Assembly: GCA_973895155.1 (NCBI GenBank)
Contig: OZ316898.1
Coordinates: 4,823,079 to 4,887,078 of the forward strand
DNA from: Marsupella aquatica
Lineage: Eukaryota; Plantae; Marchantiophyta
DNA length: 64,000 bases
Direction: 5' to 3'
Of this stretch, positions 3,349-52,900 are shown piece by piece. The notes under the pieces were generated by a model. That model saw only the letters and a program-made list of their open reading frames with translations. It was not told where the DNA came from and ran no database searches. The position numbers and the translations under genes are program-made. Positions within the stretch are counted from its first letter, which is position 1, and each line of letters begins with the position of its first letter.

Positions 3349-5823
3349 TTATAGAGCCATCTCTGCTTGGAGAGCTGCAAGCTCATCATCCTCGGTATTG
3401 GCGGGCTGCCTCTGGGGAGGTGTCGGGGTAGGACGAGTATGAGTGGGAACAGGAGGTAAAGGAGTGGATGGAGTGGTGGCCGGCCGCAGAAGTTCTTCCT
3501 CGAGTTCGGCCCCTTCAAGTTCCTCCAATTCAGCCTCCAGCTCATCCTGTGTAGCGAAACATGTAACGAGTGAGCATTGACCAAACGTCTCCTGACAAAA
3601 ATCGACATTTAATTCACTACTTCTTTGGGATACGTGACTATCGTTGACAAACCATATAATACTTTTAGTAAAAGCAAACGAGAACGAATAGAACATTACA
3701 TCATCAAAGTCAGCCGCTGCGCCAATAGGTGTGGACAGAGCTTCTTGGATTTGCTTCATATTCTCTGTCTGCTCGTTGATTTCATCCATAGTCTTATCCA
3801 CATCGTCAATATTTCTGCAGACGAAAAGAATTGAAAGGGGTCCTGGTTAGAAAAACTCAATAGGAATGACTTGCATACAGAAAAATAGACAAAGGCGTCG
3901 TTCTTTCATTAGAGTACTCAAGGTAGCCGGCTGCCAACAGCCTCGGCGGAATTTTCCAGTTTGGAGTTTGAACACATACGTTGCCTTTTGCATAGCTTTC
4001 ATTGCTGTCGCACCACTTCGTAAGGCGTCCACAGTTTCAGTGGTGGCCTTGGCCCCTTCCAACATGATCATCTGCATTAATTTCACAATTCCACCAAGAA
4101 TAAGAGTCACCTACAAAATCACCATCAATAACAAATGAGAAAGGAAAGGTTCACGAAAATCACCCCAGGAAGAGAAAAATATTATCTAGTGCCATTTCAA
4201 TCATCAGCCCTCAAAGAACCTCAACGATTGACAAGGTACACCCGCTAAAAGATACAAATGGCAAACCTTTCTTACCTGGTCATGAATACGAAGCTGGAAG
4301 TTACCCAGTTGCTCCACCTGGACTTCATATAGCTTTTTTTTCTTCAAGCACTGAATTGCAGCTGGATGTCCAAGGCAACCAAACCCTAATCGTTACTTGA
4401 GACCTACTTAACCAAAAACTGAGACCCAAGTCGAGCTCCAGCTCGTACATCACCTCCCATATTCTTACTTAAACTTTGCAGCAATAACGCAAGAAAATAA
4501 TTTTCTACAAAGCACCAGATAATCCTCGATATAACTGCAACAATTAAAGTAAAAATGTCCAACCATTCAGCAGACTTTCGCAGTGTGCCAGTAAAATAAC
4601 CAAGCGAATTCTACGTGAATTCTTTTGCGAGTCTTTGGAACTTTGTGATCCATGAATCAGAATGACAGTTCTAATAGCCAAGACAGTTGCTTGTGAGCAT
4701 GTGATAGGAACGCACCTCGCTTATTCTTAGCTCGGGTGTAATCCCTGGCCTTTTCTATCTCAGTTGCAATCTTCTTCTGGAGCACCTTTTCTTTCTTTTC
4801 AAGCATCTCAAGGGTCTGCATGCAAGAAATTGTGCATTAGAAACTATCCTGCTTTAGCTATACTCCACTCCTCAGTCATGCTTTTCACCTGTCATTTCCG
4901 ACATGCTTCCACAGGGTCCCCGTCCAAAACCAAGCGGAATCATCCTCTTTAAAGATACTCATGGCCGCAATCCATAATCGTTCGGCCCCCCATCCTCTCG
5001 ATCTATATGTTTTCCGATAAAACAGCCTCCCGATGGTGTGAATTCTGTTAGCCCCTCAGGAAATGAACATGAGCGCGAAAAAAAACTCCCGTTGAAACAT
5101 AGAACGGACTTTGAATGACCCAATCACTTTTGCACTCTTAGCAGAGCTTCCGCGGCAATGTGACAAACAGACGCTCTTCGTGACGACGATCGAGAAGAAA
5201 TTTGAGTGCTGCCTGAATCTTCAATCCCACCCTTCCCAGATTCACACCCATCTCGGCAGACCCCTAGAAAGTTGATCCCTAGAAAGCGAAGATAGCTTCG
5301 GAGCAGGCCTAGGAGACATCATGACATCTCCGGCGAGCAACCGCCAGGCCCTCGGATTTTTGCATCAAAATAAAGTAAAATTCGTTGCTCCAAAGCCAAA
5401 TTCACAATTCCGGGGGGAGACGAATTTGGCCAATCGGAAACACTGGGGAAGATTATAACAAGGTTGAAAGGATTGTCCTTAAAGGCCCAATTTAACAATA
5501 CAATCTGATCAATGATACATAAGATTTGACCCGTCACGAGATCGGGAAAAGGGTCGGCAAACGTTCAAACACCAACCTTCTAAATCTGTTGGAAGGTCAA
5601 CAAACTATCGACGCTGAGGCAGAATAGAAGGAACTCACCACGCAAAACTTTAAGGGCAAACAAGGTCGGTCGAAGCTCAACGGCACCAAATCGACAAACC
5701 AGTCAATCGCAACAACGACCGAATCAAAGTCAGTCAGTAGTTGCTGCTCACCTCATTGAGTTTATCTAACGTGGAAAGAGTCGAAGGTTCCTCCCTCGGT
5801 CTACCAAAAATGCGGCTAAACAT
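3349..5823 (-). CDS. VPS32: ESCRT-III core subunit SNF7/VPS32 (CHMP4 family), 6 exons, 220 aa
   Basis: Exons read by hand with GT..AG boundaries: 5823-5752, 4815-4716, 4361-4276, 4071-3980, 3814-3700, 3546-3349 (stop TAA). Total 663 nt, in frame. Translation MFSRIFGRPREEPSTLSTLDKLNE/TLEMLEKKEKVLQKKI...KNKR/AAIQCLKKKKLYEVQVEQLGNFQLRIHDQ/MIMLEGAKATTETVDALRSGA...DDVDKTMDEINEQTENMKQIQEALSTPIG...DELEAELEELE...DDELAALQAEMAL is the typical plant SNF7 sequence. Confidence 0.96.
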
Positions 5824-31300: not shown

Positions 31301-31732
31301 CGGCTCTCAGGGGTTCTTGTCTGCTTCAAGTGCAGCTTGAGGAGTTAAGTACACCCTAATCTGAAACAAACTACATTCCACAATTACAAACAATGCAGGT
31401 AACCACACCATTCTGGTAGCTAAGGTGTCTACCCTTGTTAGATGAATGATATGAGGATGTGATTGCTGCAGCAGAGTATTTGCACCCCAGCACTTGAGTC
31501 CATTAGAAATTAACTGGTCTTGCCCAGGGGACATTTCACTTGAGGACCCATTTTGCCATTAAATCCACTAATCAGAGTACCTAAAAGTTTAAACCGCAGC
31601 CTCATATTGAAATGAAGATCTCCAAGTTCACACAAGTAAGTTGAGCTGTCTATGTGTTTCCAATTCTTTGGATTTCCAATTTGATATAGATTATTGAATC
31701 ATGATCTCCATATTCTAGTTGGTCATTGATTG

Positions 31733-31908
31733 TGTCGTGACATATAGTATTGTAGCCATAGTGTATCAAAAACATACAAGTCACCGGCAAGGCATATGTG
31801 CAAGCTGCTAGCAACCAACATGCATAGAAAAAGTCCAATCACATTCACAAGTGCCAAGAAAAAGCAAATGAAGTGGTATGTACGTAGTGGAGATGTAAAC
31901 CTCTGTAT
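31733..31908 (-). repeat. Split direct repeat unit A (176 bp), 3' terminal copy
   Basis: Direct repeat of 32270-32445 (offset 537). Ends the element in ...CACGACA. Confidence 0.97.
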
Positions 31909-32267
31909 ATAAAAGGCGTAAGAGAAACAATTGTACTGAAATCAAATCGAAAACCGGCAGGATGCCAAGATCGGCCGGGAGCATCTAACGAATCACTGTG
32001 TGAATCCCGTGTACGGAACCGACGAGCACTGTCTGAGCTCTGTCAACAGCGATTCAAGAAGAACTGAAAAATCCACAAAGAAAGACATGCCCTAAGCAAG
32101 CAAAGTCCTGGCGTCACACTAACAAGCACATTTGCTTCAAGAACGGCCCAGACTTGCTACAAGAACATGTCGCTAACTCAGGTAGTACACTAGCCCTAAC
32201 TACATACCTAGCGGGCAGACGAGGGACATGTCGATGTGCATAAGAGGCACTGTCCCTCGGCATGACA
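31909..32267 (-). repeat. Split direct repeat unit B (359 bp), second copy
   Basis: Direct repeat of 41149-41507 (offset 9240). Confidence 0.97.
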
Positions 32268-32269
32268 GC

Positions 32270-32445
32270 TGTCGTGACATATAGTATCGTAGCCATAGTG
32301 TATCAAAAACATACAAGTCACCGGCAAGGCATATGTGCAAGCTGCTAGCAACCAACATGCATAGAAAAAGTCCAATCACATTCACAAGTGCCAAGAAAAA
32401 GCAAATGAAGTGGTATGTACGTAGTGGAGGTGTAAACCTCTGTAT
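32270..32445 (-). repeat. Split direct repeat unit A (176 bp), inner copy
   Basis: Matches 31733-31908 with 2 substitutions. Separated from B by the dinucleotide GC (32268-32269). Confidence 0.97.
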
Positions 32446-32452
32446 CCCCCCC
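32446..32452 (-). promoter_or_regulatory. Polypurine tract (G7) for plus-strand priming
   Basis: GGGGGGG on the minus strand immediately abutting the inner A repeat, ~30 nt after the polyprotein stop. Confidence 0.7.
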
Positions 32453-32494
32453 AGACCACAGCCAAAAGGAGGGCTGAAGAAAATTCAGGTAGCA

Positions 32495-32645
32495 CGTGGA
32501 GCACAAGAAGGGCAAAACCATAACCCTTGTGGCACCTGGGTAAGTTCAGGCCGAAGGCAGAAACGATGGTACCCTCCATTGCAATTGTCACACAACAGCA
32601 TCTGGTCAGCATCATCAATTCGCAAACACACCTTGCAAGGGTAGT
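32495..32645 (-). other. PHD finger at the C-terminus of integrase
   Basis: DYPCKVCLRIDDADQMLLCDNCNGGYHRFCLRPELTQVPQGLWFCPSC is a C4HC3 finger with the hallmark W before the last Cys pair. It is in frame with integrase across the TAG at 32887. Confidence 0.95.
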
Positions 32646-32886
32646 CCACAGGTGGAATCCAAGTAGAAGTCACAATGGTGGGATCTAGGTTAGGCAGATG
32701 ACAAGGGGCGCAGTTCTTGGCATTGTCAGCAATTGTGCGCCCATCTGCCCCTTGTAACTCTAGCACTCCAGACGGTTGAATAGCTTTAACCCTGAGAATA
32801 GTACGACTGGTAGAGGTGTCCAGGGTGTCGTTAGCTTGCCGCTGCAAGTACACAAAATCTCCCACATCAAACTTCCTGACCTTGGG

Positions 32887-33825
32887 CTAAAAAGTGCCAC
32901 CTCGTGTGTGTGCATAACGCAGTGTGTCCCTGTGCTGTGCAATGGTCAAATTCTCCATGGCCATGGGCATAACCCTCCTGAATAGGGCAGCCCTCTCAGA
33001 GATCACATCAGACCAAGTCACAGCTGAATCCAAGTCCACCACCTGAAGCATGTGAGCAGCAATAGCAGAAGGTGGAACTGGGTGACGACCAAACAACAAG
33101 AAGTAGGGAGAAAAGTTAAATAGTGATGCATGTCTGGACATCCTATACCCCATGGCAATGTAGGGTAAGGCCAGGTCCCAATCCTCCTTGTTTTTGGTGA
33201 GGCACATCTTCCGGAGACCCTTCTTGCATGTCTGAACCATGCGCTCTGCCAAGCCATCTGCTTGTGGGTGATCTCGTGATGTCCGGCGATGATCAATGAG
33301 GGCCTGATCAAGCAGCTCCTGGAACTCTCCTCTAAACTCTGAGCCCTGGTCAGTGAGACATTCTGCACAAGCTCCAAAGCGGCTGAGAACTTGTTGCAGG
33401 AATGCCTGGCTGGTGCTACGGGAGGTCTTATCCGGCAATGCCACAAGTTCTATCCACTTGGAGAAATGCTCTATCATGATCATGATGTAGAGATTACCCC
33501 GAGATGTGAGGGGTAATTCTCCAGCCAAATCACATGACCAGCGATAAAACATGCCCTGAATAGGGAGTGGATGAAGTGTGGGTTGCCGAGATGTGAAAGA
33601 AGTCCTCACCCTATCACACTGTTCACACCGGGCAATAACATCTCGAACCTGGCCATGCATGCCTCTCCAATGATAATGAGGGACCAAGAGGCTGTAAGTC
33701 CTCTTAACGCCAAAATGACCAAGCTCAGAATGTACCTTACGGATAAGGCCAACCCTCTCATGAATGGGTGGAACCACCACTTCCCTGTCTGGCAAGCAGC
33801 GCACAAGATGATCTCCCTTCCACAA
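32887..33825 (-). other. DDE integrase with HHCC zinc-binding N-domain
   Basis: HSELGHFG...CEQC; WSCDLAG (D), LTDQGSEF (D), DGLAERMVQT (E); SPYFLLFGR (GPY/F-like). Confidence 0.95.
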
Positions 33826-33989
33826 GTAGCGCTTGGACCTTTGCTGAATTCAGTCTCTCTGGGCAGCAGTAACATGTGTGGGGTACTCCCCATGCTGCAG
33901 AAATCTCAGAGTGTCGTTGTCCTCCCATATGTCCACCACAGGTTGGTCAACAACATAGCATGGCAGCAAAGCAAGATAAGTCGATGCAT

Positions 33990-35463
33990 GAAATGTAGGC
34001 AGGATGGAAACCTGGTCAAAATCTTGCCGTGCATCTGAGGAATCATCAGAGGTAATCAAAGGGCTGCGGGACATAGTGTCAGCATTCTGATGTGTCACAC
34101 TAGGCCTATGAATTACCTCAAAATCATACTCCTGGAGTATGAGCGCCCAACGAGCAAGCTTGCCAGTAAGCTTGTCGTTGGTCATCAACCACTTCAAGGG
34201 CTGGTGGTCGGTGTAGAGAACAAACCTGGTCCCATAGAGGTAGGGCCTGTAATGTATGACAGCCCACACAACAGCAAGGCATTCACCCTCATAAGAAGAA
34301 TAATGACTCTTTGCCTGATTGTTGCTCCTGGATGCAAGGGCAATGACGTACTCTTTACCTTCCTCATCATGCTGGCCCAGAATGGCACCAATCCCAAGGG
34401 CACTCCAATCTCTGTGTAGCACACAGACCTTGCTGAAATCAGGTCTTCTCAGCACCGGGTATTCTGAGAGCTTCTCCTTCAAAGTGACAAATGCTGCCTC
34501 AGCATCTGTACTCCATGTCCAAGTCACATTCTTTTTCAACAAAGCATACAATGGGTGTGCAATGGTACTGAAATCTTTGATGTAGATCCGGTAGTAATTG
34601 CACAACCCAATAAAACTCCTCAAAGTGTGAACATCGGTAGGAATGGGCATTTCCAAGATGGATACCACCTTGGCCCAGTGAGCCATGGTTCCATTTGGAA
34701 GAATGCGATGCCCAAGATATACTACTGATCTGACAGCAAATTCACACTTCTTGGGGTGTATCTTTAGGTTCACCTTCTTAAGCCTCATGAATAGCTCCTC
34801 AAGGTCAAGTAGATGCTGGTCAAATCCTTTGCTATGGACCAACACATCATCAATGTAGCATTTCAGAAACTCAGCACCTTGAAGAACCTGATCCATGACT
34901 CTTTGAAAGAATATGGGCGCATTCTTCAAGCCAAATGGCATCACCAACCACTCCCATAGTTGGTTACTACCATGGAAAGCTGTTTTCTTGCGGTCCTTTG
35001 CAAGCAGCAAAATCTGGTTAAAGCCTTGCCTTAGATCCACAAGAGTGAAGATGTATGAGTCTCCAATGCTGTCAAATAGCTCCTCTGGCCGTGGCATGGG
35101 GTACCTGTCCTGGGGTGTGACCAGGTTCAGTGGCCTGTAGTCCTCACACATGCGCTTCTCTGTCCACAATCCACTGGAATCCTTCTTTGCTGGCATCACT
35201 GTAGCTGCTGCAAAATCTGATGTAGATGGCTGAATAAGACCAGCTTCATAGAGCTCTTGGCATCTCTCATCCACCAGCTGCCACTCATGCTTACTCAAAC
35301 GGTGTCTCCGCCTGAAGATAGGTGTTTCATCAGCCAACTCAATGGAGAACTGCATAGTCTTGCACTTACCCAAGTCCTTCATAGAGAAAGCAAACACATT
35401 CTCATGCTTGAGGAGCAAATTCAGCAGTTGGTCCTTCTGTCTTTTACTCAGGTGGTTGCCCAT
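33990..35463 (-). other. Reverse transcriptase and RNase H domains
   Basis: RT: KRMCEDYRPLN, DLRQGFNQI, VMPFGLKNAP, CYIDDVLVHS, YLGH. RNase H: DWSALGIGAIL, YSSYEGECLAV, YTDHQPL, HQNADTMSR. Confidence 0.96.
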
Positions 35464-35819
35464 GATGAATGTGTAGTTGGCACACTAGGAATAGGACCTG
35501 ATGTACTCGTGCTTGAAGAGCCAGAAGTGCCAGCCTCTCCACTGTCCAAGCTGCTAGCATGCTGCTGATAAGGTGATGAGGCCTCTCCAAGGCCTGCTGT
35601 ATCTGTTGCTCTGGTCTGATCCACACCATGAAACTCAGAAATAATGTCAGCCACATTACAAGGGACCTCCTCCCCCCCAACACTTGGACTGAAGTGGTGA
35701 GTGTTGGACAGAGGTAAGTGCACCTGGTCTGGATGCCATGTAGCAGCACCATGGAGTGGTAGGGCTGGCACTCCTGATGCTGGATGAATGTACATCTGAA
35801 AAAGGATGCAAGTGACCAG

Positions 35820-36740
35820 AAGCCAAGTGAGAGCATTAAGATCCATTACCTTGCCAAGTAAAGCAATCCTGGCCAGCCTGGTGATTTTGGTGTGACCTGT
35901 AGTACCGGGTTGGAAGCCCATAGCCCGTTCTCTCTCCTCAGGACTAGGTTCATCCCATGTACCGGTAGAATGTCGATAAACCAGGCCAGGACCATCACCC
36001 TGAAAAGCATGTGCACCTAGAAAGGACACAAAAGTAGGCCAAGCAGCACGGGGCTGTCCAATGGTATTAGCTGGATACCAAGGTGCTGGCTCTTGCCGTG
36101 TAACCGGTTGGCAAGAACTGTCAGGATCCAAAATCTGGTCCACTGTGAGGTTAGTGTCTCTGGATGTGTGGTGAAGAGCTAACTCCAACAAGGAAGGTGG
36201 TGCAAGGTTAGTCCAAAAGTTACGAAGACGATGTGCATAAGAACCACAGTGCACTGCATCAATGAGAAGGGGTGGTCCCAAGTAGTGCTGGACCACATTG
36301 AAATCCTCTTTGACCTGGAGATGGAGTATTCTCAATGATATAACCAACAGCAGGATAAAGGAATTGAGCCCAGGTGAGAATCTGAACCAATGCTGTGAAA
36401 AGGCCAGAACGAGAATCATGCAGTCTAGCACCGTGACCAGCAGCTGAAAACCCTTGGCATTCCCAACCAGCTATGATCAAATCAAGGGAGCCAAGAAGGG
36501 TTAAGTGCCGGTGCTGGACAAGCTGGATGTCTGGAGGGAAGAAAGAAAATGCGGACTTCCATGCACTATGTGGAAACTGCTGGGGAAATCGCTCAGAAAA
36601 TTCCAGCAGACGGGATTCAGCCACTTGCCTTGCACTTGGATCAATGTCCACGTAGATGTACTGCTTCACCACCATGCCAGACTGTAGGAGAGCTTCCAGG
36701 CCTGTAGAAATGCCACCAAAAAGCTCAAGCAATGTAAGGC
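35820..36740 (-). other. C5 cytosine DNA methyltransferase domain (DNMT3-like, non-permuted motif order)
   Basis: Motif I LLELFGGISTG, II YIYVDID, IV IIAGWECQGFS (catalytic Cys at 36457-36459), V DSRSGLF, VI YIIENT. After the frameshift: VIII SYAHRLRNFWTNL, IX PEERERAMGF, X ARIALLGKVMD. Confidence 0.9.
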
Positions 36741-37079
36741 CATCTGAAGGAGGAGTCCATTTAACTGGTGCGCTCAAGATTGGGGCTATTGGCTGTCCAT
36801 TGTGCTGCCCAAGGTCTTCAAACTTGCGCAATGCAGCCACCAAAGGTCCATGGGCTGCTTGGAGCCGTTGTACCACCTCTGGTTGATGATCCATGTTGCT
36901 GGAAAGTGCTGCTATACGTGCAGCAGCATGTGCAGCAGCCACCTCATCGTCATCCTCCTCAATCCAATCTTGCAATGGGTGGTTGACATAGGTAGCTGTG
37001 TGCACTGCTTTCAACACATAGTGGTGAGCCATAGGTGTATGGGCACCATGCAAATCAAGTGGAATGTAGCCCAAGTGTG

Positions 37080-37460
37080 AGCCATCCGTATGCCAATCAA
37101 CTCTGTAGTATGCATGCTCATGCCAATTGTCAATGGTAAAACCTGGTGGGAACAAAGCCTCCTGGCCAATGAGCACATCATACGTAGTGGCATTGGTAAC
37201 CAAACATCTGACTGGGAAATGCAATTCCTGATCTGTACCTCCATTAAAAGTGAGAGTGAGTAAAGTAGAACTCTCACCCAGCACATCCTCCACAGTGCCA
37301 CTAGCAGTCTGAATGTGCCACCTGGATTGCTGTAAATGATCAGTCAACAGTCCCATCTTCTTGGCAAACTGAATGCCCAATATCACTGGTTGAGCACCTG
37401 TGTCTAGCATGACCACCTGAGGAGTGTGACCCTCCAACTTGACCACTGAATTCCTGTTGT
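37080..37460 (-). other. Retropepsin aspartic protease domain
   Basis: VMLDTGAQPVILG catalytic motif (D at ~37403), flap IQTASG, and YDVLIG closing motif. Confidence 0.88.
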
Positions 37461-38579
37461 CAACAATGGCAATGGTGGTGGAAACTGAAGTCCTATCACT
37501 AGGCACCACTCTCGGCAAATGATGAGGTACCTTGTGAAGGGAGTTAGTATCCATGGTCTTTCCACTCAACAACATAGCCAGGAAAGATGGAGCAGCATGA
37601 CCAGAATCAAGTGTAGCTCTGGTCACACAATCAGCAGCAATCGGTACTGGGGCAACCAAACCAGTGGAAACATGTAATGGAGAAGAAGAAGGTCCACTAT
37701 GTACATGAGATTGGACCTCCAAAACCGGTGTCACAGGGGCTGATGAAGAATGCAGTGAACCCTCTAGCGCTCTGATGACAGCTCTAGCATCCAGCTGTAA
37801 ATCATGGCAACTGAAAAGTGGAGTTGTAAGAATCCTTTGTGCCATACCGGAGGTGAAATGATCAAGCAGCTCAGGAGAAACAACTCCTTGTGAAATGTTA
37901 GCAGCACCTGGTGGTGGAATGGATGTAGTTGTAGCTCCCTCCCCCCTCGCCAACAAGGTGCGCTCTTCAGCAAGTGTGAGTGGCTGAAAAGATTTGGGCA
38001 GGACAGCCCGAGCTCCCCTAGCTCTAGTCATAGGACCAGCAGCAAGACCATCAACCTGTACAATGCGGCGTGTGGGAGCAATACGGGAGGCAGCACTGGC
38101 CTGCTGGTAAGCAAAATAGGAAGGGCAGAATGAATCTGAAAATTCTGCTGTAAGGCCAGGCTGTGTAGCAGAGGATAGCACACACTCACCCATATGAGCA
38201 TCAAATGGCAAGCCATAGAAAGAGCGGGGTATGGGTGTTGAACTGTCAGTGGTGCCTGGGCCAGGGATGGGTTGCACATGACCAACCGGTTGAGAAGGAC
38301 CAGCAGAGGCAGTTGACTTGCCTTTGATGTTGGCAAGTTGGGCACGTAGGGACTCAACCTCATGAGTCAGAGACTGGAGTTGAGTTGCCTGTGCGTTGTG
38401 AGCCTCCTTCTGAGTTGGTTGCTTCTGTTGCTGCTTGGGCGGTTTGTTGGCACTGGATGCTTTGCCACTGGAAGGAGGAGCAGTTGATGCAGTAGGAGCC
38501 CTCCTAGCTGGTGGGGGAGTGGAAGCAGGAGCAGGAGGAGGGGCCTGCTGTCGTAGCTGCTTCCTCTCTGGGAATTTGG

Positions 38580-39834
38580 CAAAACAAACTGCCTCCAAGT
38601 GACCCACCTTTCCGCAAAAATCACAAGACAGGTCCTCAGCAACAATATCACAGTCATTAGCCTTGTGATTGGGGTTACCACAGTAGTTGCAAGATGGCAG
38701 CATGAAAGCAGCATGGGCTGGCTTGGTCTTGGAACCATACTGTGGCACACGGGAAGGAGTGGTCAGTGTAGGGGCAGCAGCCTGGTACCTGGATCGCGGT
38801 GGACGTGCAATACTGGCCTCATAATGTGCATGGGCCAACTCAAGTTTCTCAGCAGTGTCATAGATATTGAGCAGGGTGTAGCTATCTCCAAACTCTGAGA
38901 ATACTTGCTGCAACACTTGCGAATGGAGAGCTGGTGTCCCCTCCAATGCGCGAAGATAGCGATGAGCAGTTTCCAGATCAGTGATGCTCTGGGTGTCCTC
39001 CTTCAGCTTGAGAAGCCGGCGATACATCATCTTCAATGTTTCATCGCGCTGCCTCACAAAGGTGGCCAACTGCATGATTTTATCAGCACTCTTGATTGGG
39101 AATTCCAATTCAAGAACCTGGAAAAACTCAGCCACTGGATCAGCAAAGGTAGGGGAATCAATGGTCGGAGAAATGCCTGATGTAGCCTGTGCCAAGACAG
39201 TGGGAGTAACTGGCGCAGTGGTGGAAACTAAAGTAGGAGGGGAAGTGGCAGGAGCAGCAGCATGGGCTGCAATGGCATTCTGTAAGGCCAATTGTGAGGC
39301 TGCCGTAATTGCACTGGCATAGGTAGGGTTAGGCAACTGTGTGACAGCAAGCAGCCGTTGAGAGTGCTGCTCATACACATCCAACGCCTCATGGTGCACA
39401 TACCTGGCTAGCTACTTAAATGCAAAAGCATTTGTGAAATTGCTGCCATACTTCAACTCCAATTCATAAACGACAGTGTAGAAAGTGGATTTGAACTCAC
39501 GTAAAGAGACAGTGCCTGGCCGCCCGCTGAAGCGCTCAATGCGGCCAGATGAGTGGCTAGCATCCATGCTGTATGTCGGTGAAGCTGGAACAACCACTGA
39601 TGCAGAAGGGGTAAATGGCAATGAAGTGATAGCAGGCTTTGAAGTAGTGGTGAAGCGACCGCCAAATGTAGCAGAAGGATTGCGTGGTGTGGGTGCTGCT
39701 GCTGCTGTCTGCTGATGTCGTCAAAATTGCCGAGGCTCCAATGAAATTGGCACCAATGGTCGTGGATCACTCCGTAAATGGTACCTGGATGTTGGTGGCG
39801 ATGTGCTACTACCTCCTGGCTCCTCTGCTGACAT
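38580..39834 (-). other. Gag region with two CCHC zinc knuckles
   Basis: CNYCGNPNHKANDC and CDFCGKVGHLEAVC (CX2CX4HX4C). Upstream capsid-like helical region (ERFSG...FVRQRDETLKMMYRRL). Confidence 0.85.
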
Positions 39835-41136
39835 GCTGTGGTGTCCTTGCTGGATCGACGGTCTGATGTGTATGCCGGGCCTCAACCTTATGTAGATGAC
39901 ATGTGGCGGCAGCAAAGAAATTGGGAAAATATGGGAAAATATGGGCCCTATGCAACGGTAGTCGAATACACTGGGCCCCTCTTAAGTGTATACACATTTG
40001 GGCCCCATTGTGGACCCGGAAACTGCAGCCAGACCGGTCGAGTGTGTATACACACTCGTAGCACACGGCCCTATGCAGCGCTAGTCGGACGGCTATGGAA
40101 AAGTCGAGGAGTCACTATGGCCGGCGAGGGAAAGAAACGGGAGGGCACGATGCCCTATGTACATACTGCGGAGCACAAAAGGCGTAAGGAGGAAAAGGCA
40201 AGACGCAGCGTGGCAAAGGCGAAGTAAAGAGATGGCGAAAAGGGCGAAAAGAAAAGCATCGGGCCCCCATAGAGGGCTGCGAACTCCCCCCTCCTCTCGT
40301 GCAATGTAATTTGGGCTCGTGCCCTGGCAGGAGCACTCCCGAGAAGGGAGTCGACTTAACTCCCCTCCCCCTTTAATGCTTCATAGGGCCTCGTGCCCTC
40401 TCCTCTCGCAGTCTCGCTTCAACTCCTCCCCTTCGTTAATGCTGAATGGGGCCTTGTGCCTGGCAGAAGTGTGAGTCCCAAGAGGAGGGAGTCGAATGTA
40501 CTCCCTCTCCTCCTTTTAATGCAGCATAGGGCCTCGTGCCCTCTCCCTGCGCTCCTGCCTTCGCTCCCCCTCCCCCTTCTTTAATGCTGCCTAGGGCCTC
40601 GTGCCCTCTCCTGGTGCTCCTTCCCCTTCCTCTGGCAGTCTGGCTGCTTAGAAATGGGCGAGGCAAGGGCACGATGCCCTATGCACAGCCTGCACACCAA
40701 AGCGGAAGGAGGTCGAGAGAAAGAGAAGAAAACAGGGCCCCCAAAGGCGAAAACGTAAAGAGGAGGCCGGGGTGGAAGCGTGTCGAAATGAGGGCACACG
40801 GCCCTATGCAGGCGTCTCGCTGCAACCGAGGCAAAACTCGCCGGCAGCTGTGGCCGGGAATGCGAAAATGGCCCCAAAAACACAAGCGGCAACAAGCGGC
40901 AACAAGCGGCAGTAACAGTAAGAAGGAGCAAATGGGGTCGCGGATGCAACCAGAAAATGAACTCTGGACCTCCTCGGGAGCATTGATATGTGTATACACT
41001 TAAGTATACACATAACAACATAAACCCATAACTTTCAACTCGTCGCTCCGATGTTTGTCGAAGAAATTGCAATGGCTTCACCAGAAATTATCAAAATCAT
41101 CACGAGCAAGCTTCTTTCCCTCACTGCCAACTCGGG

Positions 41137-41150
41137 AGTTCTTCTTGAAT
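41137..41150 (-). promoter_or_regulatory. Putative self-priming primer-binding site
   Basis: Minus-strand ATTCAAGAAGAACT directly at the inner boundary of the 5' B repeat. It is the perfect complement of AGTTCTTCTTGAAT (41305-41292) inside B. No TGG-type tRNA PBS is adjacent. Confidence 0.7.
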
Positions 41151-41507
41151 AAAAGGCGTAAGAGAAACAATTGTACTGAAATCGAATCGAAAACCGGCAG
41201 GATGCCAAGATTGGCCGGGAGCATCTAACGAATCACTGTGTGAATCCCGTGTACGGAACCGACGAGCACTGTCTGAGCTCTATCAACAGCGATTCAAGAA
41301 GAACTGAAAAACCCACAAAGAAAGACATGCCCTAAGCAAGCAAAGTCCTGGCGTCACACTAACAAGCACATTTGCTTCAAGAATGGCCCAGACTTGCTAC
41401 AAGAACATGTCGCTAACTCAGGTAGTACACTAGCCCTAACTACATACCTAGCGGGTAGGCGAGGGACATGTCGATGTGCATAAGAGGCACTGTCCCTCGG
41501 CATGACA
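41149..41507 (-). repeat. Split direct repeat unit B (359 bp), 5' end of element
   Basis: Matches 31909-32267 with 7 substitutions, all transitions. Confidence 0.97.
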
Positions 41508-43174
41508 ATTGAAAGTTGTGGAGCTTCCCCTTTTATGGGCATAGTAGCTTCAAAGACTCCCCATTGCATAGCATTGAATTGAAGTTTTTCACATGTTCAG
41601 GCACACGTTCCCATTGTCCAATGCTTATGTAGAGTGAGTCCAATCGTAGCCCATTAAGCTCACAATGTCCTAAGCACGGATGATCACTTTCCACCTGAGT
41701 TTTTAACTCACATTGAATGGCCCTTTCCAGTAAGCCAGATTCTGTCATCTTCTCCTTATTAGCCAAATGAGGCCTCCCATAGAGCGGACCAGCTTTTTCA
41801 AAGATGACATGACAGGGTGCAAGTTCTAATTAGCAGCTTCTCGATGTGGACTAACAACACGATAATTCATTACATAAGCCTCATTATGATATCAGAACAT
41901 TACTAGGTACTTGTCAAGCAAGTCCCAAGGTACTTATGAAATAAGTCCCTATATGCATGCAACTTCTGCTTTTGGGGATGATGGAAGAAACTCAGGAGTT
42001 TATTGAGTATAGAGTGTGCACAGAGCCTGAGAACCAGACCAGATATATACTGTGATAAGTAGAAGAAGATATCTTTGAATACATCATTCTATGGGAGAGC
42101 CATGTCCCCAACAAAGCTAGAGGAAAATTGTAGGCAAGAAAAACATGTTGAGGAGTAGCCAATGCAACTTCAGGAGGCCACAGTCAATGCTTAGGAAAAC
42201 AACACAACCAAAGTTTTAAACAAAGTCAATACTCTGGCTGTCTTAGAATGATACAAAATTTACACAAGTGACTTTAAGAAGATGCTTCAAATCACCTACA
42301 GTAGGCTATGTCCAAAAGAAGAGGAGAAAGTAAAGATGGTTCCTTCCTTTCCCTGTATGGCCTGGTCAGTGTTACTTTTGTTACCTCTTTTGGGGCAAAC
42401 CCTATGAGACCATTGCCCGCCTACAACATTTACTGTTAGGTGATTGGGTCAAGCTTCAGGTGGAGTACTACAATTGGGTTGGTGACGATTGCATTGCGGA
42501 CAACTGTTTTCCACGAGGTGCCACAAATACCTCTTGTCCGGCGTCATCACTCTGTCAGAGCCTCATGTTAGGAAAGCTAGTGAGTACTCTAGGGCAGCGC
42601 GCTCTTTGGTTTCCCTCTCACCTGCCTATGCATCTGAAGATATCATTGCAGCCCTCGAAACTCATCATGCCCCGAGGGCAGCTGAGGTTCCAACGGGGTT
42701 CCAGGCTTTGTAAGGAGTGTCTTGCTGGAGGATTAATTAGTTTTCCCTATCTCAGGAAATTTTGACTTCTGTCTTCCTTCTTCTGCCGTGACTTTTAACC
42801 AACGGCATGTATGGGATAGGTCGCAGCATTTGCAGGATTGCTTTCTTCCAAATGACTTAGCATCCTGGGGGGCCTGGATTTTCTCAGATTTTCCAAGTGT
42901 GTGCCCATGTTGTGGGCCATTGCAGGGGGGAGTATCTCTCCTGCAGTTGCTCAGATCTTTAGAGTTAGCCTACTTTTGGCCCTGGCCAAGAAGCCTGTGG
43001 GTGATCAGCCTCTAACTTGCAATTGGGGAGGTTTCATAACGGAGATTTAGTCAATTTTTGCCTTAAAACTTGGTCACAGTTTTCATCTCACTTTTTCTCT
43101 CACCAATATAGTGTGGCCACCCATGAGATTGTGAAACTTTAGTTCCTTTGCGGTTGTGAGGGACTCTTGTGCAT

Positions 43175-47242: not shown

Positions 47243-49977
47243 GATGATGCTGATTTAGGGGCCGTGATTAAGTTGAAAGTAGAAAGAGAAGGCATCACTG
47301 CTGTTAATTAGCAAGTACTAGCGGAGAGATCTGGAAAGAAGTAGGGTTCATGTTCATTTGGGAAAGAAAACGGGAGAGAGGTGTGGTACGATGTAGGGAA
47401 GGAAGCGGAGATCTTCTGTAGAAGGGGTAAGATGCGATGCTGTGAAGACGCTCCCCAAGTTAGCTCAGCAAATTAAGGATCCAGAAATTTTGGAATGGAC
47501 GTTAGGACCCGCGTTAGGAAAGATGGTGCAGCTACCCGTGCGACTATCGTAGGAAGAGGAAGCTGATCTGAGGTTCTGGCAATTTTAAAGGTAACGAATG
47601 ATGGTGTTGCTGAGAATATATGGTGGAGAACTTGAGCCGACTGAGGTAGGTTCATCTCCTAAGTGCGGGCGGGAGTGCGGGAGGGAAAGGAAAGGAGCAC
47701 TATGATCGATCCGGATGTAGGAAGGTCTCAACAACCGAGGATCGGCTGAACTCTTATTTGTCGAGTGCGAAGTAAGAACGATTTCGATCTCGTCGGACCT
47801 CTTTGCCGATTTCGTTCAACCCGTGTGGCTCTGAATTCCGATCTGCTCAGGGAGAAACCCATTGAATTGATTTGGCCTTGGCCTGGTGGACTCCAAAAGA
47901 TTGCGTTGCTGCACAGGAAATGTACATGGAAGGCCCGTGAACTCGGTGGAAGCTGGCATGCCGAAAGGTGCTCGGGCTGTTTATGACCAGGGTTTAACCG
48001 AAGGGTTTTTCCTGCGCATTCGGTTTTGTTGGACAATTTTCCTTTCCAAACTTGAGAGACTTGGATGATCATCCAGCCGACCAACTATTTCTCTGGAGGC
48101 GAACGATGATCTCGAGGTGCGAAAACATTGTTGTGCATCACCATCTGCCTTCACTTGCTCACTCACGTGTCTCTTTCCCATTACCAGTCGTTCATGTGAC
48201 TTGGTTCACGTCTAAACAACGCCCGCGAACATTTAGTCATCACTGACTTGATTTTCCTCATCCATCTCTTTCTGTTACGATGGATCATTGGCTCGATGAG
48301 AGCGGCTTACACGACCTTGATTAGAACTCAGGAGATTTCCTTGCCAGGACTACACGGCACGGCACAGCTGTCATGTTCAAGTCATCAGCTGGCAGTCTTG
48401 ACCACTACAGTACCATTACTACAGGACACTCGCCAGCTCCTTCCACATGCTCAATCCAGTCTGAAATCATCCCAACCATCATCTTGCTGAACCAACCTCC
48501 GCAACTGGTTTTACAAATTTGCGTATGCACTCGTAAACCGTGCACACGTACCCGCCGAGTGCTTCGTGGAGCGGATTGTATGTTTCACAAGAAGCTGTAG
48601 GGTAGAGATACGTGTATGGGATATTGGATTCCATCCCGTTCGCACGTGCGCTGTTGGAATGGCCACTTTGGTACTTGTTCGGAAGAATAGGAACTGCGTT
48701 TCGACGAAGTCCTGTTCAGAGTTCGATCCCACAACTGACAGGTTAATTGCTGGTTCGATCCCACAACTGACAAGTTAATTGCGGACAGAAGACAAAGCGA
48801 CTAGCTACTACTGTGTAGTTGGATGTACATAGCTTACTCCATCAATCACCACTCAGGGAGACCAATATCTGTACAATGAGCTCTGAGCCGCATGGCTTGG
48901 AAAGCTGCAGGTAAGGTTTTATGGCACCTGTGGCGCGCTTTGCTGCCAGATTTACGTCGTCAATTGCCTCAAGCTGACTCTCAAAGTTTCGATCTATAGA
49001 TTTCAGATCGATTCAAGGTAGGCCGATCCCCTCACAACTTCCTATCGTCATTCCTAGCCTGCGCCATCCTGATTAAATGTACGTGATAGCTTCATTAAAG
49101 GGTCCAGAAGCTCACAGTTGGATTTGTCTCTCGAAATCGTGGCCACCGGGGTCGGCACTGACAGGTTTGGAAGTGGTTCAAGTTTGGAAATTATACGAGT
49201 CCATCTATTCTTCTGAACCAGCCTGAATCAGGTCGATCATACCTTCGTCACGGTGTCTGACGACACTAAAACCCTCGTACTGCCGATGACCAACCCCTTT
49301 CTTGCTGAAAAGCTTGCTACGAACTGCAGGATACCTGTAAATTCTATGATCTCAAAGTTCATTGACTTGGGTTCCTGGCAAACTAAGACTGGTCGAGCAT
49401 ACACGTCGCACGGGTCCAGTACTTCAAGTGAAAGTATAGGATTCTTGAACACACCTGTCTAACTCATCAAATGCTTAAGATCCACAAGGATACGAGCGAG
49501 GCCTGTGATAATCTGATGAACATGTACCCGCGCGCATGAGGTACGAAGGTCCCTGCTGGCTTGTTATTCGAATACTGACTGATCGATTGACTGTTCAGTC
49601 GTTCAGTATTGATCCCCGCCAGTTTTACATTCTAAACTGAAGCACATCGTAGAGCAGTACTTTGGTCGCTGAAAACCAGAAAAACCATTCGTAGAAGATG
49701 TAGAATGCCATGAAATCATATATCAGGAGCTTGAAATTGTGAATGATCCTGAGAACTTTGTGAACCGCGTGATCGAGTCTTCCCCATCAGTGATGGATTC
49801 ATGTATTGGACATTGTATGATCTGCAGTTGTCAGCTGTCAAAACCATAGTTCTTGATCAAGAACTCGAGCTACATACGTCACGCTGTTGGCTAGCTATGA
49901 AATGTACGCCTGGATGTATTTTCAAGTTGTCATTGTCTGTCCCGTGAACGCACAGGTTTCATTTGATATCTATTTCG

Positions 49978-52900
49978 ATGACGATTTGCCCCTTCAAGCT
50001 GAGACTTTCGAGCTGTGGCGCAGGCTGGTGTTCGTCGACGACGGTCATGAAGAGCAGCAAGTCGCAGCAGAACTTCACATCGACGGTTTATAATCTGTCA
50101 GACTACCTTGAGAATGAACATGTAGAGGAAGGGGCAGGAGTTGTTCTAAGTTCGAGTGGCAACGCTCGAAAGCAGATCTACTTGGATGGTGACTCAGTGG
50201 CGAAGAGGAAATATGAAGATATGACTTCTTGTGGAATTGAAGACGTTGAAGCTGAGATCCATCATGAACAATCGGGTAAGTTCAGTTACTTTAGAGAACA
50301 TAAGAAGAGAAGGCCGCCCGAAGCTGGCAATCCAATGCAATTTCAAACAATTTCTACCACTCCTGTGCAAGTTGAGGGAGTCCAACGGGAGGTCGACGAG
50401 CTTCAAGTTAGGTTGTCAGAGATTTCACGAAGGTCTTGTTCAGTTTCGGGCGTAGAGGTAACTCCAGATATTTGCGGGGGAGAATCCGACTTGACGGCTG
50501 AAAATCAAATGGCAGAAGAAAGCTCAAGATCGAGCAATAATTATGGGTCTTCGATGTTTGAGAGCGCCGCTGAATCGGTTTCAAAGGGACCAATCACGGA
50601 GTTTCGATCCGTTTCTAGCTTAGGAGTTATGCATAGCTTTATGGAGCGCACACACCATGGAGGGAGGGGAGTCAGTGTGATTACATCTAGCGAAGGACCG
50701 GGCCAGATGAGCAGTTTACTTCTTGGGAATGATGGTCACAATACTACGCTGAACGACGCGAACGACGGTCGGGAAGGCGTGAGCAAATCCGAAACAGCAG
50801 CTAGTTATCAGCTTGGATCAGGATCTTCCGAGGCGCCTTCTTTCGTAAAAAATTATACAGCTCCATCCCAGCTTCGGGGAAGAAGCAATCAAGGGTGGTT
50901 ACAACTAGGTGTTGGTAGTAGTTCGGGGCGGCAAACGCCAGCTACACTAAATGTTTACTCGGAGCTCGCTTCGGGTGAGGAAGGTCAGCCTTCGACATTG
51001 AGACAAGACCTCCATGAAGAGAGATCAATTTTCAAGCGGAGGATTACATCGATCGACTTTCCCGTCGCTGCAGACTGTGAAGCAAATAGTAATTATGTCG
51101 TCCCTGAACACTCGAACGCTTCACCAGGTGAATGGCATTTTACAAGGGTCTCGAATGGCATTCCCCCTAAATTTGAAGTGTGCCCCAGTGATCTCTCAGG
51201 TAACCTGAATCCAGCTACGCTTCGGAGTATACCCATTTCTAGTGTGATGAGGAATTTGGACGCTGCCTCGGAAGCGGGAGAAGCTGTAGAACAATCGGAT
51301 TTGTGTATTGGTCGGACGCTTGTCCAAAGAGGCACAGCAAGGCAGGAGCTCGTTTTGGCCCCTCTCAATTGCACAGGGACTGCGGAATGGGAGAACGAAG
51401 GACAGGTGGTGAGCATAGATAAAGCGTTTGAGCTGCGCAGAGATCAAGAAGGCTTTCAAGCTGGCAGGTTTCCTGATCCTAGAGGTGACCGCTTCGGCAG
51501 TGCTTGCCCGCGAGGTCCGGAAATTCACAACGGAGCACGTATCTCGCTATCGACACCAATTACGGGCGTTAATCTTAGATCAGCACCAGCTGCCGCGGCT
51601 GCAGGGCCATCAATGGGCTATGACACTTTCCAATATCACAGAGATAATCCACCTAGCTCTCTCTCCGATTTGCAGCAGAGAAGAGAAGATCCACGTCATG
51701 GCCATCTAGGATTTTCGTGGCTACCTCCACCCGCTGCCGACTCGGCCCCTAAGCTAATACCAACGGCAAACAACTTTCAAGGGTGGATCTCTTCTGAAAT
51801 ACCCTCAACTACGAAATTGACTGCAGCATTGAGCCCCAGTAATGCACGAATGGACAATCCACCCAATCAACAAGCGACGAGAGGTTTGGATGAATGGGGA
51901 ACTTTGTTCAAAGAAGTTGGTCCCAAAATGCTGATTCAATCTTGTCGTGACCTAAGTTCAGAAGGCTCCCCAGCCTTAGTTCAGTCTGCACGTCACGAGA
52001 CGAGTGTCGGATCACAAGAGAATTTGGTGCCTTTCAAACGGGCTATCGAAAACATTCAGAAAGGGCCTCAATGGCCGATTCCGCGAGAAGCCATGAACTC
52101 GATCGCATCTTGGTGCGTGAATGGAAATCTCCAAGGCGTCAGAGGTGAGTCTAGTTTTGAAGGTGACCCTTTGAATCTGAGCGAGAAGCCACCTCAGAGG
52201 CAAAGCTGGCAACCAGCCGGCGGACAGACGTGGCTGCATCATGAAAATGTGACCGCTCTTCACAGACCGGTTCCTGAAACTGCAAGAAAACCCAGGTCGC
52301 AAATGCTTCCACCTGGGTCCATGGGGACGAGTCATGCGGGACTTTGGTTCGTTCTCCAATCTGCAGAGAATCAGTTAAGATCAATTCAACCCTCAGTCTG
52401 CTCTTCAGGGATCGATGTGCTTACTTAATTCTAAACTCACAATTTCTCGTGTCAGTGCGTTGTTTGACATGCATGTGTTTGTTGGGACCATCATGAATTT
52501 TTCGTTCCAACAGTTACAAAACTGTACACGAATGTTCGGTTCTAGCTGCAGCGGTCAAATTGCTGACAACCTTGACCTTTCGCGGTCCTGTTGACAGCCA
52601 TCATTCTTATGCGATATGCGTCAGAATGCAAATTTCGTAAACACGGACGTTTAAGCTACATTCTCATAATGACTCGTAGGAAGTCTTTAGTCATGCAGAA
52701 TGCTGAGTTCCTGTGGACGTATCCGAGCTCAGCTGTCCAGAGTACATGATGGTTAGGCTGATTGGATCTATAGTTTGCAGGCATATTCCAAGTAAGTTAT
52801 GTGGTCCACGATCCATTGCCTTTAGATTCTACTGTTTTCTTGTGCGGATAGATATTGCCTAAAATTTAGTCAACTTACTCGTGACATCTTCCTGCGATCA

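Follow-up and report, generated by a model that had tools for sequence, protein, structure and literature searches.

The 64,000-nucleotide stretch of Marsupella aquatica (Marchantiophyta; contig OZ316898.1, positions 4,823,079 to 4,887,078) analysed here, hereafter the window, carries on its minus strand a Ty3/gypsy retrotransposon with split direct repeats; all element coordinates below are positions within the window. We consider it to be a young, broken copy of a multi-copy element of the KnitGypsy-Dnmt3 kind. Its integrase likely uses an internal CA-GC-TG site, and the ends made by reverse transcriptase (RT) are likely end-joined, most likely before insertion, as a circle with two long terminal repeats (2-LTR circle). 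Taken as a whole, this reading is probable. Of its parts, the use of the internal site by integrase is strongly suggested by the sequence, and the order in which the circle precedes insertion is favoured with less assurance.

Two sets of related copies bear on this reading. The window's own family was followed in contigs from five public runs (X1-X4 and X6; X5 barely covers the LTR), with read depth not taken as copy number. A sister family was obtained from a metagenome scan, of which the best 80 of 575 loci, at 69-84% integrase identity, were used; with 19 truncated or unreadable loci excluded, these represent 47 distinct insertions in which the 3' end can be read.

Sequence comparison gives the layout, in element orientation, as B1 (359 bp)-internal region-G7 tract-A1 (176 bp)-GC-B2-A2, with ATTG on either side. 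On the plus strand the left part therefore reads ATTG, A', B', GC (32268-32269) and A', and the right part reads internal region (32446-41148), B' and ATTG. An earlier reading made from the sequence alone (the sequence-only reading) had described this layout, and every coordinate holds. The repeats, ends and priming sites are as follows.

31729-31732, plus strand: target-site duplication (TSD) ATTG on the 3' side of the element, its 4-bp length backed by the sister copies
31733-31908, minus strand: A2, the terminal A copy, ending in CACGACA, which is the integrated right end and the predicted left end of the complementary DNA (cDNA); many different flanks in X1, X3, X4 and X6
31908-31909, minus strand: B/A seam TTTTAT/ATACAG, from the predicted end of U5 to the start of U3 as defined by the polypurine tract (PPT); variants known
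31909-32267, minus strand: B2 (359 bp), predicted R and U5 of the 3' LTR
32264-32273, no strand: internal attachment (att) palindrome GACA-GC-TGTC with spacer 32268-32269, the putative integrase cleavage site
32270-32445, minus strand: A1 (176 bp), predicted start of U3
32446-32452, minus strand: PPT (G7) beside A1; GGTCTGGGGGGG/ATACA is kept in the sister family
41137-41148, minus strand: putative self-priming primer-binding site (PBS) beside B1; equivalent pairings in the sister family and in the more distant relative L082
41149-41507, minus strand: B1 (359 bp), beginning with TGTCATGCC, the integrated left end; many flanks
41292-41305, minus strand: predicted transcript start and self-primer, complementary to the PBS and paired with it in the minimum free energy and centroid folds
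41508-41511, plus strand: TSD ATTG on the 5' side of the element

A1 and A2 differ at 2 of 176 sites and B1 and B2 at 7 of 359, without indels in either pair; thus the two pairs look equally young. The termini of the integrated element are TGTCATGCC (left) and GTCACGACA (right). TG..CA integrated ends and a 4-bp TSD are present, as in Ty3/gypsy elements (TSD of 4-6 bp), and so are split direct repeats in the DIRS order. A gypsy-style pair of complete LTRs, with PBS and PPT beside TG/CA ends, is absent. Because the G7 tract directly adjoins A and the PBS directly adjoins B, the predicted cDNA is (A-GC-B)-internal-(A-GC-B), which has no TG/CA ends. The claim that TG and CA lie inside the reverse-transcribed LTR A-GC-B is thus supported, the extent of this LTR being a prediction.

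The same arrangement was found in other copies of the window's own family. The flank-B junction occurs without mismatch in contigs of X2 and X3, the A-GC-B junction in X1, X2 and X3, and the exact seam in X1, X2, X3 and X4. Loose ends of low agreement (many flanks) were found in X1, X3, X4 and X6, at the start of B in 13, 10, 8 and 3 contigs and at the end of A in 16, 13, 12 and 8 contigs, respectively. Other copies with ordinary full LTRs at both ends, which the sequence-only reading had named as evidence against itself, were looked for, and no such form was seen in X1-X4 and X6; a PPT-to-B joint, as expected for an ordinary TG..CA LTR, was found in 0 of 12 joints and in none of the 15 listed of 77 joints. 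No empty site was seen, since the runs covering the flank all carry the insertion, and scans of viral contigs found nothing.

The repeats of the sister family have no DNA match to A or B of the window. The 3' ends of its 47 distinct insertions read A-NN-B/A in 27 and a single A in 20. The former, together with the own-family contigs, bear out the B..A-GC-B-A layout with a 4-bp TSD as family-wide, and the latter are the B-internal-A derivatives for which a search had been suggested (L006, L007, L015, L020, L022, L024, L025, L031, L032 and L034; further, L037, L040, L049, L056, L066, L068, L073, L075, L079 and L080). The 4-bp TSD was compared in 18 two-ended copies (L049 was unreadable): 8 have an exact match and 14 at most one mismatch, the corresponding numbers among 306 mismatched pairs taken as control being 2 and 19. 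Flank identity is maximal at 4 bp. Exact TSDs also occur in single-A copies (L034, L040 and L080). The CA-NN-TG spacer measures 2 nt without exception (29 of 29 sister copies), and its bases (GC in 10, GT in 8, AC in 7, AT in 4) match the expectation of methyl-C decay from GC. A special methylation mark on the spacer was also considered, for which the case is weak (23 of 58 decayed versus 0.28 at all CHG sites, p 0.046). The B-internal-A copies are as young as the full ones (median end branch 0.073 versus 0.095, p 0.47, without L060 and L023) and are intermixed with them in the tree (15 changes versus 15.3 when shuffled); late recombination of A1 with A2 is therefore not favoured as their main source. 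Sister A ends consist of 15-bp tandem units each ending in CACGACA (L026, L044, L057, L060, L064, L065 and L071), and A1 and A2 of one copy are often one such unit apart, in either direction. At L060, L061 and L062, one copy is apparently inserted within the integrase region of another.

Unlike the spacer, the seam varies. Of 27 sister seams, classified by eye and with L027 and L039 left out, 13 are exact, 13 contain an indel and one has a substitution; indels are found at 0 of 29 spacers (Fisher p 1e-5) and at 0 of 19 B ends beside the PBS. A loss of 2 nt was seen in 4 of the 27, and the variants are dispersed over the tree, recurring in separate clades. In the window's own family the start of A is constant, and on the B side either A or AT is added or B begins at 31912, 31949, 31960, 31961 or 32043; one contig joins the start of A to internal position 35708. 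The extra A may be the next base of the PBS, as would result from a primer of 11 rather than 12 nt. At L027 (3985-5156) the end of B meets, in place of A, an internal stretch of the element in inverted orientation, an aberrant joint at the position of the seam. The distance between A1 and A2 is 0.089 in one copy and 0.135-0.136 between copies (n=24), where the A1-A1, A2-A2 and A1-A2 distances are equal, and B1 and B2 of one copy have several private indels in common. Because the A repeats are closer within a copy and the private indels are common to B1 and B2, the repeats appear to be re-copied jointly and the seam rebuilt at each insertion. The expectation of an identical seam in all copies was not borne out; the variation is a better fit to end-joining.

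As for priming, the final 2 nt of B and the 12 nt that follow B1 (41137-41148) together form a perfect complement to 41292-41305 within B, and this pairing is present in both folds of the 5' RNA. In the sister family the pair has a different sequence and lies about 32 nt downstream of where a TATAAAA box begins; of its 14 bases, 12-14 are paired in 16 of the 17 copies (L062 is truncated). L082 has a third, unrelated 13-nt pair, so that three families have three sequences. A tRNA primer was set aside, since the site beside B has no TGG start and would pair perfectly with a stretch of B (tRNA databases were not searched). Thus the PBS lies where the sequence-only reading placed it, beside B, and it is a complement of 14 nt in B rather than a tRNA site. 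Such self-priming is described for Tf1 and Tcn1 in the part of PMC6317226 available to us. The PBS is predicted to be a Tf1-like self-primer.

The coding region has the gypsy order of protease, RT, RNase H and DDE integrase. Pfam profiles for protease, C5 DNA methylase, RT, RNase H, H2C2 and rve integrase, and PHD were matched, and gag carries a zinc knuckle; the region is interrupted by stops and frameshifts. Its parts are as follows.

32485-32886, minus strand: C-terminal part of integrase and PHD finger, here behind an in-frame stop (PF00628, E 2.6e-12)
32887-33849, minus strand: integrase, H2C2 zinc finger and core, D107-D167-E202 (DD34E), from the domain search
33850-35484, minus strand: RT and RNase H, from the domain search
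35780-36740, minus strand: Dnmt3-like C5 methyltransferase in the protease-RT interval, frameshifted here, limits approximate (PF00145, E 2.5e-05)
36259-39720, minus strand: gag with zinc knuckle, then protease and the first part of the methyltransferase, with a single in-frame stop near 39412
39721-41136, minus strand: 5' leader with short imperfect repeats, little covered by other copies

A tyrosine recombinase (PF00589) was not found in 18 open reading frames (ORFs) of the element of at least 100 aa or in 9 ORFs of relatives, and domain searches of ORFs of the element and its relatives gave no chromodomain match, the PHD finger being found instead. The best solved-structure relative of the L082 Pol is Ty3 (E 7e-100), and the best match of its unbroken methyltransferase domain is DNMT3A (E 5e-08). 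The second D and the E are separated by 34 residues (DD34E) in 108 of 120 homologues, the remaining 12 not being parsed. The closest named integrase, at 74%, is from Calypogeia fissa, and together with a host-gene match to the same species this points to a liverwort as the probable host. In L087 (3061-9516) the methyltransferase match lies between RNase H and integrase, instead of between protease and RT; because of this difference in position, the domain has been moved or gained twice. P0125, a protein of Closterium carrying a copia-type RT family (PF07727), matches the protease-methyltransferase region weakly (E 7e-15), and possibly represents another retroelement with a related domain. The coverage of the 5' leader (39900-41170) is far below that of the rest in four runs, and the leader may be hypervariable between copies.

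We propose the following course of events. The RNA would start in B1 and, by the computed pairing, prime itself as in Tf1. Reverse transcription from the PBS and PPT would then give the linear cDNA (A-GC-B)-internal-(A-GC-B), without TG/CA ends, a step in keeping with the observed homogenisation of A1 with A2 and of B1 with B2. The end of B would be joined to the start of A by an error-prone end-joining enzyme, as the observed seam variation suggests. From the geometry of the sequence, we propose that integrase nicks each strand of a single CA-GC-TG 3' of its CA, which would in one step leave two recessed CA-3'OH ends with 2-nt 5' overhangs. Such ends are the usual product of 3' processing by retroviral integrase. 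The need of paired nicks for a 2-nt stagger would explain why the length of the spacer never varies, and because the internal cut would supply the integrating ends, the RT-made ends would be spare and joined at the seam. Strand transfer would then produce the 4-bp TSD, which is observed. The constant use of the left-LTR site may, as a guess, reflect early commitment of integrase, since this site would already be double-stranded when the right one still lay about 9 kb of synthesis away. The dead-end B-internal-A copies may come from one-LTR circles or from homology repair.

Several observations weigh against this course of events. A symmetric circle predicts B/A-NN-B-internal-A equally often, yet none of the 20 distinct insertions (21 loci) in which the 5' B is visible shows this form, or any A ahead of that B; among copies with a matching or near-matching TSD the count is 11 versus 0 (p 0.001). 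Because a 2-LTR circle has two identical CA-GC-TG sites and only one product is found, an extra assumption of asymmetry is needed, and selection is not hiding dead products, since dead-end B-internal-A copies are common. The one-sidedness may be due either to early commitment to the left site, or to insertion first with joining by the host, or to second-site products being resolved to B-internal-A by homology. Thus the 2-LTR circle opened at one internal site, as put forward in the sequence-only reading, agrees with the predicted LTR, the internal TG/CA ends and the fresh seam, but not with the lack of the second-site product. Furthermore, 4 of the 18 two-ended copies (L024, L029, L062 and L070) fail the one-mismatch TSD test. 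With about 9% divergence between A1 and A2, the sister copies are old; they also lie on short-read metagenome contigs, and some seam changes may postdate insertion. The microhomology at the seam (AT) is compatible with a template jump of RT too, and as a whole the 5' RNA folds no more stably than shuffles (z -0.94). The support comes from genomic sequence, from which circle, cDNA, transcript and cleavage are all inferred.

One possible alternative is that no circle is formed, integrase opening the left LTR of the linear cDNA and inserting both ends, after which the free RT-made ends would be joined in the chromosome; end-joining would give B/A, and annealing of the two A copies would give B-internal-A. 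The genomic products are the same as with a circle formed first, and the one-sided choice of site fits, as do the joints of a constant A start to a shortened B or to internal points and the joint of B to an inverted piece in L027. However, it would require a chromosome break at each insertion, yet 14 of 18 two-ended copies keep a TSD within one mismatch, and we regard this alternative as rather unlikely. RT itself might also make the seam by an end-to-end jump: on finishing the right LTR it would switch to the left end of the cDNA it is making, without host end-joining. B ends with AT and A starts with AT, so that the 2-nt loss in 4 of 27 sister seams fits an overlap, and a step coupled to RT could explain the use of only one att. 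This is nonetheless improbable, since one-sided losses of 40-134 nt and added bases resemble resection and fill-in, and precise full-length seams, which require no overlap, are the commonest class (13 of 27).

In models of PAT and Ngaro elements, seam and A2 are copied from read-through RNA, and the layout is inherited, not rebuilt. The repeat layout of the window element is indeed identical to that of the split-direct-repeat DIRS elements (A-coding-B-A-B, as given in the available part of PMC5890265). However, the A2 copies form no lineage of their own, the between-copy distances being equal and all larger than those within a copy; the seam variants occur in separate clades; and the PBS and PPT lie exactly at the two sides of the seam. 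Copying from read-through RNA is thus very improbable here. For a one-off rearrangement or an assembly error of an ordinary LTR element, no supporting evidence was found, nor is there an empty site for comparison; the layout is present in 27 distinct sister insertions and L081, the junctions occur in independent runs, and the joints listed include no ordinary PPT-B joint, so that this explanation can hardly be credited.

The layout reaches beyond the two families. Seven contigs in bacterial or archaeal genome bins (L081-L087) contain relatives at 43-56% identity, and are probably algal or plant contamination of these bins. L081 has the layout PPT-A-GC-B/A-flank, and GACAGCTGTC is found about 55-110 nt after the G tract in L082, L083 and L084. 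The same core occurs in L081, and the relatives in which it comes after a G tract have 49-56% integrase identity; L087 (43%) ends inside the motif, and L085 and L086 stop too soon after the ORF for the att to be read. Named homologues are from Klebsormidium, Calypogeia, Riccia, Marchantia, Haematococcus and Chromochloris. In the integrase tree, three K. nitens proteins fall among att-bearing elements, in the same branch as the window element (93/99); this branch is not starred, the backbone is weakly resolved, and the outgroup is one distant row. The three proteins are not tied to the KnitGypsy-Dnmt3 elements of PMC5890265 themselves. The chances seem to us evenly balanced that there is a gypsy clade of the green lineage (DD34E, PHD, often Dnmt3, self-priming) in which the ends for integration are uncoupled from those of reverse transcription, an obligate 2-LTR circle being reopened at an encoded CA-GC-TG like a minicircle of IS3 or IS30; the element's own methyltransferase may mark one site so that only the other is cut. 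This role of the Dnmt3 in site marking is speculation.

Among known systems, PAT, Ngaro and SymbioDIRS have the same A-coding-B-A-B layout of repeats. However, they use a tyrosine recombinase, whereas the window element has a DD34E integrase, a protease, TG/CA ends, a PPT and a 4-bp TSD. In models of PAT, Ngaro and SymbioDIRS, integration passes through a circle junction. The sequence-only reading implied that a DDE-gypsy element with this layout was without precedent. This is not so: de Mendoza et al. (2018; PMC5890265), in the legend to their Fig. 4c, mention DIRS-like repeats together with gypsy domains for KnitGypsy-Dnmt3 of Klebsormidium nitens. In the parts of that paper available to us, KnitGypsy-Dnmt3 resembles the window element in its gypsy domains, its Dnmt3-like polyprotein domain and its DIRS-like repeat layout, and is presented as a lineage acquisition of K. 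nitens; a yeast methyltransferase assay of the K. nitens enzyme was inconclusive. Its main text contains neither 'target site' nor 'circular', the sole 'TSD' concerning a LINE (long interspersed element), and its passages and three supplementary texts have no att site, self-priming, seam variation, B-internal-A class or mechanism, although the figures may hold details of TSDs or ends. No other paper with the name 'KnitGypsy' was found in the literature searched.

Tf1/sushi elements and the plant Tcn1 chromoviruses also replace the tRNA PBS with a self-priming site and have the gypsy order of domains; from the part of PMC6317226 available, they differ in having ordinary LTR pairs and a chromodomain, whereas the window element has a PHD finger and no chromodomain match. 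The integrases of foamy virus and HIV-1 cleave the palindrome of a 2-LTR circle to give ends capable of integration (PMC1180852 and PMC4372172, in part). That palindrome, however, is the end-to-end joint and a reserve route, whereas in the window element the palindrome lies inside the LTR, the joint is separate, and the route would be obligatory. A bacterial likeness is found in IS3, IS30, IS21 and IS256, in which a DDE enzyme cuts circles whose two ends abut across a 1-2 bp spacer, and inserts both ends, as in the cleavage of IS2 minicircle junctions with 1-2 bp spacers (PMC3299598, in part). These are DNA elements whose transposase builds the junction each time, in contrast to the permanent, RT-copied junction of the window element. 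Troyka, the relative suggested in the sequence-only reading, is likewise an LTR retroelement with unusual termini, but has CG..CG ends, a 3-bp TSD and ordinary LTR pairs, and is confined to animals in the available part of PMC12440569, against TG..CA and 4 bp here; it was rejected as a relative. Gypsy-7a of Chlamydomonas has a PHD finger; its legend names subparts of the LTR, yet gives a left and a right LTR. Searches by title and start of abstract for split direct repeats with gypsy and integrase, permuted or split LTRs, and an internal att gave nothing closer.

Thus the layout has one earlier mention, and neither evidence for its mechanism nor the breadth of the clade was found in the literature searched. 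The sequences argue that this variant of LTR retrotransposition is real, is shared across the family and has a broad phylogenetic reach, with a mechanism that appears well constrained. In retroviruses, the end-joined 2-LTR circle has long been regarded as a dead end or a reserve. If our reading is true, this would be a natural LTR element that integrates mainly through the end-joined circle and whose DDE integrase is adapted to cutting both strands at an internal site; the question of an obligatory circular precursor could be tested with a 10-bp site and a small enzyme. Furthermore, LTR finders that look for paired TG..CA ends, as in the survey of PMC6317226 (seen in part), would miss or mis-cut these high-copy elements of bryophytes and algae.

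As for host genes in the window, a Snf7 exon lies at 3349-3846, and a long host exon lies at 49948-52428, the only match of which is a protein of Calypogeia fissa (51%).

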